This document shows, piece after piece, positions 52 through 4,169 of a DNA stretch of 4,273 nt. How positions within the stretch are numbered: the first letter of the stretch is position 1; the number at the start of each line of letters is the position of its first letter. A program made the position numbers and the translations under genes. The notes beneath the pieces were generated by a model. That model made no database searches. It was not told where the DNA came from and was given only the letters and a program-made list of their open reading frames with translations. This stretch comes from Qubevirus faecium, in sequence record FJ539134.1; one strand, 5' to 3'.

Positions 52-1404
52 ATGCCAACCCTTCCGAGAGGTCTTCGCTTCGGATCGAATGGCGAGGTCT
101 TAAATGACTTCGAGGCGCTCTGGTTTCCAGAGCGCCATACCGTCGATCTGAGCAATGGGACCTGCAAGCTCACTGGTTATATCACTAACCTGCCTGGCTA
201 CAGTAATATATTCCCGAATAAGGGAGTCACTGTTGCTCGTACGCCGTACAGAAGTACAGTGCCTGTTAACCATCTTGGTTACCGGCCCGTTACGACTGTT
301 GAGTACATTCCCGACGGCACCTACGTGCGCCTAGATGGGCACGTAAAGTTCGAAGGGGGCTTGGTTAATGGGTCAGTTGATCTCACGAATTACGTGATCT
401 CGTTAGCTGCTCAGGGTGGCTTCGATTACCAATCGGTAATCGGACCTAGGTTCTCTGCGCACTTCTCCGCGTTCAGCACCAAATATGGTGTCTTACTCGG
501 GGAAGGGAGAGAGACTCTTAAGTATCTTCTCCTGCTGCTTCGCAGAATGCGTGAAGGGTACCGCGCCGTAAGGCGTGGCGATCTCAAGCGCCTCAGGAAT
601 GTGATCTCTACGTTCGAGCCGACATCCTCTAAAGGGAGGAAGGCAAGATCTGAGTTCTCACAAACCTATCGCGACAAGCTTACCGGTAACAAGGTTGAAG
701 TTAAACCAAGTGAGGGTAAGTGGAATAGCAGTAGTGCGAGTGACCTGTGGTTAGAGTTCCGTTATGGGCTTATGCCGTTGTTCTACGACATTCAGTCCGT
801 GATGGAAGACTTCATGCGTGTCCATAAGAAGATCGCGAAAATACAGCGATTTTCTGCAGGGCACGGTAAGCTGGAGACGGTTAGTTCGCGGTTTTACCCG
901 GACGTCCACTTCGCTCTTGAGGTCACCGCAGTGTTACAGCGGCGTCATCGTTGGGGTGTCATATACCAGGATACTGGTTCTTATGCCACTTTTAACAATG
1001 GTCGTCTAGTCCCGGTGAAGGACTGGAAGACAGCGGCGTTTGCACTCCTTAATCCTGCCGAAGTTGCATGGGAGGTAACTCCTTACAGCTTCGTTGTGGA
1101 TTGGTTTGTAAATGTTGGGGATATGCTTGAGCAGATGGGCCAGCTTTATAGGCACGTCGATGTCGTTGACGGTTTCGACCGGAAGGACATAAAACTCAAG
1201 TCCGTATCCGTACGCGTCTTGACTGGCGACAGTGCGCACGTAGCTAAGTTTACTCTACGTCAAGCACGTTTGTTGCATAGTTATTATTCGCGCGTGCATA
1301 CCGTTGCGTTTCCGCAAATTTCACCACAACTCGATACTGAGATACGTAGCGTTAAGCACGTGATCGATAGTATCGCATTATTAACCCAGCGCGTTAAGCG
1401 CTGA
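52..1404 (+). CDS. A2: Maturation protein A2 (pilus attachment; in Qbeta-like phages also the lysis protein that inhibits MurA)
   Basis: 450-aa ORF, ATG start with upstream SD, TGA stop at 1402-1404. N-terminus MPTLPRGLRFG and many blocks (LWLEFRYGLMPLFYDI, TPYSFVVDWF, LLTQRVKR at the C-terminus) match my recollection of Qbeta A2. First gene in the genome, as expected. Confidence 0.93.
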   Translation: MPTLPRGLRFGSNGEVLNDFEALWFPERHTVDLSNGTCKLTGYITNLPGYSNIFPNKGVTVARTPYRSTVPVNHLGYRPVTTVEYIPDGTYVRLDGHVKFEGGLVNGSVDLTNYVISLAAQGGFDYQSVIGPRFSAHFSAFSTKYGVLLGEGRETLKYLLLLLRRMREGYRAVRRGDLKRLRNVISTFEPTSSKGRKARSEFSQTYRDKLTGNKVEVKPSEGKWNSSSASDLWLEFRYGLMPLFYDIQSVMEDFMRVHKKIAKIQRFSAGHGKLETVSSRFYPDVHFALEVTAVLQRRHRWGVIYQDTGSYATFNNGRLVPVKDWKTAAFALLNPAEVAWEVTPYSFVVDWFVNVGDMLEQMGQLYRHVDVVDGFDRKDIKLKSVSVRVLTGDSAHVAKFTLRQARLLHSYYSRVHTVAFPQISPQLDTEIRSVKHVIDSIALLTQRVKR

Positions 1405-2434: not shown

Positions 2435-2454
2435 TAGCATGTCAAAGACAGCTA
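2435..2454 (+). promoter_or_regulatory. Replicase translational operator hairpin (coat-protein binding site): stem UAGC/GCUA + UGUC/GACA, bulged A, AAA loop; contains the replicase AUG
   Basis: Seen directly: 2435-2438 uagc pairs with 2451-2454 gcua; 2439 a is unpaired (bulge, first base of the AUG); 2440-2443 uguc pairs with 2447-2450 gaca; loop 2444-2446 aaa. Same architecture as the Qbeta operator (8-bp stem, bulged A, 3-nt loop) as I recall it. Confidence 0.8.
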
Positions 2455-4169
2455 GTCGCAGAAGAGAAATTACTCAGCTATTGGGTAAGGTCGACATCAA
2501 CTTCGAAGACGACATCCACATGTCTATTGCCAACGACCTCTTTGAGGCCTACGGCATCCCGAAACTTCAGAATGCTGAGGAGTGCATTAACACCGCATTC
2601 CCAAGCCTTGATCAAGGCGCAGACACATTTCGTGTCGAGTATTTGCGCGCTGAGATCTTATCGAAGTTCGACGGGCACCCTCTAGGTACTGATACCGAAA
2701 AGACAGCATGGGAGAAATTCCTGGCTGCTGAAGAGGGTTGTAGACTTACGAACGAACGACTGTCGCAGGTTAAGTACCACGATAATTCCATTTTGTCGTG
2801 GGGCGAGCGTGTAATTCATACTGCTCGCCGAAAAATACTTAAACTAATTGGCGAGTCTGTGCCGTTCGGGGATGTGGCGTTGCGCTGCCGATTTTCTGGC
2901 GGTGCAACGACCTCGGTAAACCGTTTACACGGTCATCCGTCGTGGAAGCATGCCTGTCCGCAGGATGTTACCAAACGCGCATTCAAGTACCTGCAAGCCT
3001 TTAAACGGGCGTGCGGTGACGTTGTAGATTTACGCGTCAACGAGGTGCGCACTTCAAATAAAGCAGTCACTGTTCCGAAGAATAGTAAGACTGATCGCTG
3101 TATCGCCATCGAACCCGGTTGGAATATGTTTTTCCAGCTCGGTGTAGGTGCGGTGCTACGCGATAGGTTGCGTTTATGGAAGATTGACCTTAATGATCAG
3201 TCGACCAACCAACGCCTCGCGCGGGATGGGTCTCTGCTAAATCATTTAGCTACCATAGACTTATCCGCAGCCAGTGATTCGATCAGCTTAAAGCTAGTTG
3301 AATTGCTGCTCCCTCCTGAATGGTATGACCTTCTGACAGATCTCCGATCTGATGAAGGCGTTTTACCTGATGGACGAGTTGTGACCTATGAGAAAATATC
3401 CTCCATGGGAAATGGCTACACTTTCGAGCTTGAGTCGCTTATTTTCGCGGCGCTCGCAAGAAGTGTGTGTGAGTTACTAGAAATCGACCAATCTACTGTT
3501 AGCGTGTACGGGGATGATATAATCATCGACACTCGTGCCGCAGCTCCATTAATGGATGTCTTTGAATACGTTGGGTTCACGCCTAACAAAAAGAAGACGT
3601 TCTGCGATGGACCCTTCCGCGAATCGTGCGGTAAGCACTGGTTCCAAGGGGTAGATGTAACGCCCTTTTACATACGCCGACCAATTCGTTGCCTTGCTGA
3701 TATGATACTGGTTTTAAACAGTATCTACAGGTGGGGCACTGTTGATGGTGTATGGGATCCTAGAGCACTGACCGTGTACGAAAAGTATCTCAAGTTGCTG
3801 CCAAGAAATTGGCGACGCAACCGGATACCAGACGGCTACGGAGACGGAGCTCTCGTCGGATTGGCTACGACGAACCCGTTCGTTATAGTTAAGAATTATT
3901 CAAGACTATACCCGGTATTAGTTGAAGTCCAGAGGGACGTCAAGCGTAGCGAGGTAGGCAGTTATCTATATGCCTTACTCCGCGATCGCGAGACACGTTA
4001 TAGTCCTTTCCTGCGTGACGCAGATAGGACTGGGTTTGATGAAGCGCCGCTAGCTACTAGCCTTCGTCGCAAGACAGGTCGGTACAAAGTGGCGTGGATT
4101 CAGGACAGTGCCTTCATCCGGCCCCCGTATTTCATTACGGGCATTCCCGAGGTGAAGCTTGCAAGCTAG
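2439..4169 (+). CDS. rep: RNA-dependent RNA polymerase (replicase beta subunit)
   Basis: 576-aa ORF, ATG with SD, TAG stop at 4167-4169. YGDD catalytic motif at 3507-3518 (VSVYGDDIIID). Long blocks match Qbeta replicase from memory (CRFSGGATT, NKAVTVPKNSKTDRCIAIEPGWNMFFQLG, LATIDLSAASDSISL, VTYEKISSMGNGYTFELESLIFA, FRESCGKH, GVDVTPFYIR, IPDGYGDGALVG). Confidence 0.96.
   Translation: MSKTASRRREITQLLGKVDINFEDDIHMSIANDLFEAYGIPKLQNAEECINTAFPSLDQGADTFRVEYLRAEILSKFDGHPLGTDTEKTAWEKFLAAEEGCRLTNERLSQVKYHDNSILSWGERVIHTARRKILKLIGESVPFGDVALRCRFSGGATTSVNRLHGHPSWKHACPQDVTKRAFKYLQAFKRACGDVVDLRVNEVRTSNKAVTVPKNSKTDRCIAIEPGWNMFFQLGVGAVLRDRLRLWKIDLNDQSTNQRLARDGSLLNHLATIDLSAASDSISLKLVELLLPPEWYDLLTDLRSDEGVLPDGRVVTYEKISSMGNGYTFELESLIFAALARSVCELLEIDQSTVSVYGDDIIIDTRAAAPLMDVFEYVGFTPNKKKTFCDGPFRESCGKHWFQGVDVTPFYIRRPIRCLADMILVLNSIYRWGTVDGVWDPRALTVYEKYLKLLPRNWRRNRIPDGYGDGALVGLATTNPFVIVKNYSRLYPVLVEVQRDVKRSEVGSYLYALLRDRETRYSPFLRDADRTGFDEAPLATSLRRKTGRYKVAWIQDSAFIRPPYFITGIPEVKLAS

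Follow-up and report, generated by a model that had tools for sequence, protein, structure and literature searches.

The maturation protein A2 of SP-like phages is longer than that of Qβ (450 amino acids, aa, versus 420), which raises the question of what the additional segment is, how it was acquired and whether it has any part in the receptor-binding and lytic functions of A2. In this work we analyse this segment in a 4273-nucleotide (nt) DNA of Qubevirus faecium (FJ539134.1), the whole of which is called the window here, with positions counted on its plus strand. The explanation that we favour, and hold to be probable rather than secure, is a lineage-specific, two-step insertion into a loop that varies in length and separates two α-region helices of A2. 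In the first step, in the stem of genogroup IV, about 22 aa would have been added, giving a short helix, conserved in part, that has a basic G-[KR]-R-x-R motif and an aromatic stripe of F202, Y206 and L210. In the second, restricted to the SP clade, a flexible linker of 9 aa would have followed, most likely by a 30-nt tandem duplication of the GKW..SSASD codons and the loss of one codon thereafter. The peptide would be an accessory element that is tolerated where the helical bundle, at its inner end, faces the RNA, not on the MurA- or pilus-binding surface, and may make a few additional, non-specific contacts with the genomic RNA (gRNA). RNA pairing constrains the same nucleotides as well, the group IV part forming an extra arm and the SP-only part a longer loop of a pre-existing hairpin.

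Read in the A2 frame, nt 613-714 of the window encode FEPTSSKGRKARSEFSQTYRDKLTGNKVEVKPSE (aa 188-221), quoted in the preliminary description of this DNA as an insertion of about 30 aa relative to Qβ A2. Three independent methods confirm the insertion and agree on its boundaries. Alignment of 13 A2 proteins with MAFFT opens a 31-column gap between ...SYH and NGKW in all six Qβ-group sequences. In a phmmer comparison with PDB chains, residues 1-188 of the window A2 correspond to Qβ A2 1-190 (independent E-value, i-E, 1e-43) and residues 221-450 to Qβ 192-420 (i-E 1e-72), while residues 189-220 are left without a match. The Pfam Phage_mat-A profile also matches the protein in two stretches, and the insert searched alone against Pfam gave zero matches. 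Thirty-two window residues stand opposite one Qβ residue, His191, a net gain of 31 aa. The remaining differences in length are eight indels of 1-2 aa totalling -1 (net +30), so the insert explains the entire difference between 450 and 420 aa, of which the preliminary description had ascribed to it the most part. The Qβ string given there, RRVIQSYHNGKWKPATAGNLWLEF, is correct according to the alignments, and the segment is indeed missing from the Qβ group. No alternative-frame open reading frame (ORF) of at least 20 aa runs across 613-714 on the plus strand, which speaks against an overlapping gene.

With the addition of group IV A2s from three more public genomes of this genogroup and from four metagenomic contigs, the resulting 18-sequence A2 alignment resolved the insert into two nested parts. 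FI, NL95, HB-P22, HB-P24 and three Logan contigs have 22-23 extra residues; nine further residues, TGNKVEVKP, occur only in the window, BR8, SP and one Logan contig (L013). The protein alignment places this SP-only addition at aa 211-219 (nt 682-708), the nucleotide alignment at nt 688-714. The insertion is thus lineage-specific, as had been supposed: each of the 11 genogroup IV A2s examined has it, and neither the Qβ/M11/MX1 group nor the nearest outgroups do.

The A2 proteins of SP (X07489 / CAA30372.1, 450 aa) and BR8 (FJ539135) are the closest counterparts, being products of the same gene, of equal length and with the 32-residue segment at the same place. Their inserts are identical to that of the window in 24-26 of 32 residues, and 6-8 of the 16-21 A2 substitutions fall within it, mostly at aa 191-199. 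FI, NL95, HB-P22 and HB-P24 share with the window the group IV 22-23 aa, the conserved residue skeleton and the RNA helices described below, but lack the 9 aa (27 nt) of TGNKVEVKP. Qβ A2 (PDB 5MNT, 5VLZ, 5VM7, 7LHD; 420 aa) is about 46% identical and has the same fold family, flanking helices and motifs RGDL..LR and GxW..LWLEFRYG; at the insertion site, however, it has His191 alone, and its RNA forms only a small hairpin there. The insert as such is already known, as a long-standing genogroup IV trait in the public SP, BR8, FI and NL95 records, to which the window adds strain-level substitutions. Its discovery value is little, since the 450-aa SP A2 has been public since X07489 and the gap is visible in any Qβ/SP alignment; according to a passage in PMC12856241, such alignments of the two maturation proteins have been published (Rumnieks & Tars 2017, Figure S1 of PMC12856241, as cited in PMC12856241).

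The AlphaFold2 model of the window A2, built on a 42-sequence alignment, has a mean predicted local distance difference test (pLDDT) value of 78.7 and shows a β-rich N-terminal part and helical segments, with 5MNT as the top Foldseek match (E 1.6e-33). In this model the insert is flanked by a helix at aa 178-187 and a long helix at aa 227-256. Within it a helix is predicted at aa 193-210 (pLDDT about 55), followed by coil at 211-226 (pLDDT below 50), and the model of FI-type A2 has an equivalent helix at 191-204 with pLDDT of 53-68. The idea that the insert is disordered therefore holds for one half of it. The C-terminal half has pLDDT below 50, and the insert lies on the disordered side of a charge-hydropathy plot; aa 193-210, in contrast, are helical in two AlphaFold2 models, and six residues of the insert are invariant. 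Low hydropathy, low predicted order and weak sequence conservation, as expected of an intrinsically disordered linker, likewise apply to aa 211-226 and do not apply to aa 189-210, so the segment as a whole is not such a linker.

Its description as basic and Ser/Lys-rich can also be kept in part. The composition (K5 R3 E4 D1 S5 T3) is hydrophilic and of mixed charge, with a net charge of +3 and 18% of large hydrophobic residues as compared to 38% in the rest of A2. It is not unusually basic, since 59 of 418 34-aa segments of A2 equal or exceed its count of K+R. The densest basic stretch of the protein, LLLLLRRMREGYRAVRRGDLKRLRN, with 11-12 K+R per 34 aa, lies directly upstream of the insert at aa 149-185 (window 496-606).

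Conservation in the 11 group IV sequences reveals a skeleton of E189, P190, S192, G195, [KR]196, R197, F202, [SN]203, Y206, R207, D208 and L210 (EP..G[KR]R..F..YRD.L). E189, P190, G195, F202, Y206 and D208 are invariant in all 11, S192 and R207 are kept in 10 and L210 in 9. In group IV, E189, P190, G195 and F202 are encoded by differing synonymous codons, and so it is at the protein level that these residues are constrained. The ratio of non-synonymous to synonymous substitution rates (dN/dS) is 0.375 in the insert versus 0.18 in the rest of A2 for group IV, and 0.26 versus 0.075 for the SP clade; in the sub-block aa 191-199 the corresponding ratio of proportions of differences (pN/pS) reaches 0.58-0.72. 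The insert, which makes up 7% of A2, contains one third of the amino acid differences that separate the window from its three nearest relatives. As judged from these codon comparisons, selection on the insert is relaxed yet purifying, and neither dN/dS nor pN/pS suggests positive selection. On the models, the first half of the insert would thus be a helix that is loosely conserved and has a basic patch as well as an aromatic stripe, and the SP-only half a flexible linker.

As for the location in the virion, passages in PMC12856241 and PMC10610835 locate the α-region of the maturation proteins of Qβ and MS2 in the capsid interior, where it is connected to the gRNA, and assign binding of the pilus and, in Qβ, of MurA to the exposed β-region; Qβ A2 inhibits MurA and causes lysis, as stated in a part of PMC12856241. 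The Qβ maturation protein also holds U1, the final stem-loop in the 3' untranslated region (PMC8880383). Because the C-terminal end of helix 227-256 runs straight into β-strands, the insert, at the opposite, N-terminal end of this helix, would lie at the interior far end of the helical bundle, and is probably in the capsid-internal, RNA-facing part of A2. According to RNA cross-links of MS2 and motif predictions, the maturation proteins of levi- and alloleviviruses have an RNA-binding stretch around aa 160-180 (PMC4751978), which adjoins the insert on its upstream side; the dense basic stretch at aa 149-185 coincides with this motif. With the insert so placed, its most economical reading would be modest non-specific contact with gRNA or simple tolerance.

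The second constraint on the segment is that of RNA pairing. Folding the 11 group IV sequences to a consensus over window 559-762 yields 41 pairs, with pairing in 95.6% of cells; double changes occur in 12 of these pairs (27 cells). None of 500 column shuffles reached the observed value, a contrast somewhat inflated by the derivation of the structure from the same alignment; with partners slid by 1-3 columns, at most 10 double-change cells remained. The hairpin that brackets the SP-only nucleotides (Table 1) has compensatory changes in five of its seven closing pairs, with 98.7% of cells paired. Its loop is 3 nt in FI-type phages and has an extra 27 nt in the SP clade (30-nt loop), where an inner stem GGUY/RACC folds in the same way in four strains, with one switch from U-A to C-G. 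At the homologous place the Qβ group has a smaller hairpin, UUACC-AUAAU-GGUAA, and so does the uncultured relative P0008. The insert arm is an additional element with respect to the Qβ group, which is devoid of it, and three of the eight pairs of its main helix are compensatory. The upstream hairpin, common to genogroups III and IV, marks homology of the flanks at the RNA level. All three are held in a multibranch domain, the closing stem of which shows little covariation and is weaker evidence. The helices persist in the 513-nt fold, in which only the innermost GCG of the insert arm takes an alternative partner.

Pairing and coding meet in two places. The compensatory changes in the 678-721 stem alter the encoded residues (GKW to GSW, DGW or GEW), and 10 of 11 group IV sequences encode Arg207 by CGC, with free variation in the other Arg codons of the insert; for these reasons the peptide is shaped here by RNA pairing. 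One may ask, therefore, whether RNA came first, that is, whether the insertions were fixed for their RNA structure (an extra arm and a longer hairpin, serving genome folding, compaction or coat-protein contacts) with the peptide as a harmless passenger in a permissive loop. We take this possibility seriously but doubt it. The strength of covariation in the insert helices, the exact fit of the SP-only 27 nt into a hairpin loop, and the stem changes and the CGC codon, where pairing overrides peptide, all argue for it; besides, 59 of 77 Qβ stem-loops lie within 5 Å of capsid proteins (PMC8880383), and additional ones could thus be of importance. Against it, the invariance of E189, P190, G195 and F202 despite synonymous codon variation reflects selection on the protein, and dN/dS is well below 1. 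The fold energy of the insert RNA is ordinary (z = -0.37 alone, -1.35 in context), by which unusual thermodynamic stability was ruled out, and a search of the whole window against Rfam at gathering thresholds gave zero matches. Moreover, nearly all phage RNA is base-paired, and pairing alone is no proof of a specific function. Beekwilder and colleagues reportedly used these group III and IV sequences in phylogenetic models of Qβ RNA secondary structure.

Long-range pairing was considered as well for the conserved AACCUAUCGCG (662-672), which has an 11-nt perfect complement, CGCGAUAGGUU, at 3159-3169 in the replicase gene. It was rejected, as 40 of 200 shuffles did equally well and the only other group IV contig of full length, the FI-type L014, lacks the complement; the complementarity is probably due to chance.

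The two parts of the insert differ in what can be said about their source. For the 66-nt group IV part, local alignment to the rest of the genome on both strands was no better than for dinucleotide shuffles, and no adjacent-block similarity, hence no duplication signal, was found in its flanks; on these two tests an origin by duplication or recombination was rejected. The SP-only part is likely a tandem duplication of the codons that follow it, which then diverged, as judged from the similarity of two adjacent blocks (Table 1). These are identical at 15-18 of 30 nt, the top adjacent-block similarity among 391 A2 positions (null mean 8.3, standard deviation 1.9). Because the offset between the blocks is 30 nt and the net gain in the SP clade is 27 nt, loss of one codon (3 nt) has to be assumed.

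Several observations weigh against the two-step accessory-loop explanation and are to be taken together. The global AlphaFold2 model fits the Qβ crystal structure 5MNT poorly (template modelling score 0.45-0.48), and pLDDT inside the insert is at most about 55-68. Placement at the tip in the capsid interior comes from a single source, the helix topology. A net charge of only +3 is not unusually basic for A2, and the conservation of YRD could reflect RNA pairing of UAUCGCGAC instead of a demand of the protein. Finally, the duplication signal amounts to about 3 standard deviations on 30 nt, and a gain of 27 nt requires the further 3-nt loss.

Table 1. Coordinates of A2, its insert and the associated protein and RNA features (window positions, with the evidence for each).
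Feature	Position	Strand	Basis
Whole insert relative to Qβ A2, aa 189-220, EPTSSKGRKARSEFSQTYRDKLTGNKVEVKPS, in place of Qβ His191	616..711	+	phmmer split, MAFFT gaps, indel list
About 22 aa common to all genogroup IV phages, aa 189-210	616..681	+	Per-column conservation in 11 sequences, pN/pS, codon alignment
Zone of the SP-clade-only 27 nt / 9 aa	682..714	+	Alignments; AlphaFold2 coil, pLDDT <50
Predicted α-helix in insert, aa 193-210, low confidence	628..681	+	AlphaFold2 models of window A2 and FI A2
Block 1, aa 212-221 GNKVEVKPSE, putative diverged tandem copy	685..714	+	Identity to block 2
Block 2, aa 222-231 GKWNSSSASD, putative duplication source	715..744	+	Conserved in all alloleviviruses
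RNA hairpin bracketing the SP-only nucleotides	678..721	+	7-bp stem 678-684/715-721; inner GGUU/AACC 693-696/704-707
Insert RNA arm	589..673	+	589-604 pairs with 658-673, including conserved CCUAUCGC; cap hairpin 624-627/634-637
Upstream hairpin CCGCGCC-GUAA-GGCGUGG	561..578	+	Covarying in genogroups III and IV
Multibranch RNA domain	532..734	+	Stem 532-539/727-734; fold of 11 group IV sequences, window 409-921
A2 maturation/lysis protein gene	52..1404	+	ORF, 450 aa + stop; Pfam PF03863; hosts the insert

The order of events was approached with further Qubevirus-like A2s collected from metagenomes by word-indexed and exhaustive HMMER searches (P0008, P0011/12, P0013 and P0061-64). They derive from uncultured lineages present in Logan and ENA assemblies (contigs L017/L018 for P0008, L024/L025 for P0012/P0011, L019 from Logan SRR18186867 for P0013, and the proteins P0061-P0064), and are 30-56% identical to the window A2. 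Their contigs, where long enough, have the maturation-coat-read-through-replicase layout with a Read-through domain (PF16814). The lineages look like alloleviviruses that belong to neither genogroup III nor IV. When the insert is masked, trees unite group IV, group III, P0008 and P0011/12 in a clade (91% bootstrap), and P0062 and a group of P0013, P0061, P0063 and P0064 fall outside it. From the GD motif to the Trp of LWLEFRYG, the spacer has 24 residues in group III, P0008, P0011/12 and P0062, with near-identical sequence (LRRV[IL]Q..H[NK]G.W[KR]P), and 23-24 residues in P0063 and P0064. Since this short state is kept across the deep splits of the Qubevirus-like clade, it is taken as ancestral and the segment as gained in the group IV stem.

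At the identical point between the helices P0013 and P0061 have basic, hydrophilic insertions of their own (spacers of 51 and 41 aa versus 24 in Qβ), which resemble the group IV insert in composition and have no sequence similarity to it beyond that. Homology of the P0013 insert was rejected, its alignment scores being below the shuffled means, and we infer that the P0013 and P0061 insertions were independent events. The spacer of distant maturation proteins can be as short as about 10 or as long as 88 residues, which argues for a permissive, repeatedly used site. Such a site could interest those who engineer or tag Qβ-like maturation proteins; a tag at this point, however, would probably be buried within the particle. 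A more far-reaching suggestion is that the inter-helix loop of allolevivirus-type maturation proteins is a recurrent "landing pad", where growth of the hairpin and gain of basic residues go together; the Qubevirus-like lineages may hold three independent basic insertions, one of them enlarged again by duplication in the hairpin loop. A contact of the added peptide with gRNA in the capsid, if it exists, would give genogroup IV an extra, lineage-specific link between maturation protein and RNA, which could contribute to group-specific packaging or genome ejection. We offer all of this only tentatively and consider it unlikely.

Reverse polarity, with the segment ancestral and deleted in the Qβ lineage, is very unlikely. 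Distant maturation proteins are mostly longer here (median about 60 versus 47 residues in Qβ, between the ET and WLEF anchors), and a few of them have look-alike strings at the site, for example SGRKRRFNVNY in P0066 and RAFSRSY in P0168. Against these observations stand the near-identical short spacer common to five lineages that bracket group IV and the dissimilarity of the P0013 and P0061 inserts. With a hidden Markov model of the insert, the spacers of 142 distant homologues obtained scores no higher than those of shuffled spacers, and the motif F[SN]..Y, chosen a priori, was present in 2 of the 142 versus 0.6 expected (p = 0.13); with no support from either test, ancestral homology between the insert and the distant spacers was rejected.

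The proposal of the preliminary description, that a charged, disordered insert alters the contact of A2 with the F-pilus receptor or MurA and thereby tunes adsorption or lysis in genogroup IV, is in our opinion highly improbable: A2 is multifunctional, group IV has no separate lysis gene, GenBank notes (NL95, FI) call A2 lysis-involved, and within the SP clade the insert evolves fastest of all A2, as interaction surfaces sometimes do, but it is placed between helices of the α-region, which makes a direct role unlikely as MurA and pilus bind the β-region on the capsid exterior (according to the same passages of PMC12856241 and PMC10610835), its pN/pS stays below 1 at 0.58-0.72, and blocks of the N-terminal β-region vary as much or more (aa 34-55, ratio 0.64-0.66). 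What is gained in interpretation with the two-step insertion is the transfer of the insert from the MurA/pilus surface to the capsid-internal α-region, and the view of a coding sequence constrained as protein and RNA structure alike.

The window itself is a complete SP-like genogroup IV allolevivirus genome (Qubevirus faecium, SP subgroup). A2 is followed by the coat gene, ending at 1822, the read-through (A1) frame extending to 2419 and the replicase gene at 2439-4169, with no separate lysis ORF, and the order of genes is the same in annotated relatives. No identical record was found in the phage collection searched; the top match is FI strain BR8 (FJ539135, also 4273 nt), with 95.1% nt identity over 100% coverage, followed by phage SP (X07489) with 91.9%, and Qβ-group genomes give only patchy matches of about 72%. 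By these comparisons the window looks like a further strain of the SP subgroup of genogroup IV, and it has the trait of that subgroup, a 450-aa A2 with a 22 + 9 aa insert, the length also annotated for SP as '(AA 1 - 450)'. Its A2 is assigned to the Phage_mat-A family (PF03863) with E 6.9e-86 (289 bits, cut-off 25), matches Qβ A2 chains of PDB with E 1e-118 (phmmer), and is 95-96% identical to the A2 of BR8 and SP and 96% to that encoded by contig L013 (Logan SRR6713852).

Some irregularities in the records were noticed as well. GQ153932.1, an 'SP' record of 4103 nt, matches the window in four pieces, and its A2 is 79% identical over aa 39-450 (95-96% for other SP records), which suggests frameshifted or low-quality stretches. 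At about aa 355-365 NL95 A2 (L005, AF059243) reads EQTRPALSVNVDVV versus EQ[IM]GQLYR[HY]VDVV in the remaining group IV, with one additional residue in NL95, the kind of pattern left by a short frameshift that is compensated or by an error in old sequencing. In the window, the coat ORF was called from TTG at 1418 (134 aa), while annotated relatives use the ATG six bases 3' of it, here at 1424 (MAKLNQ..., 132 aa).

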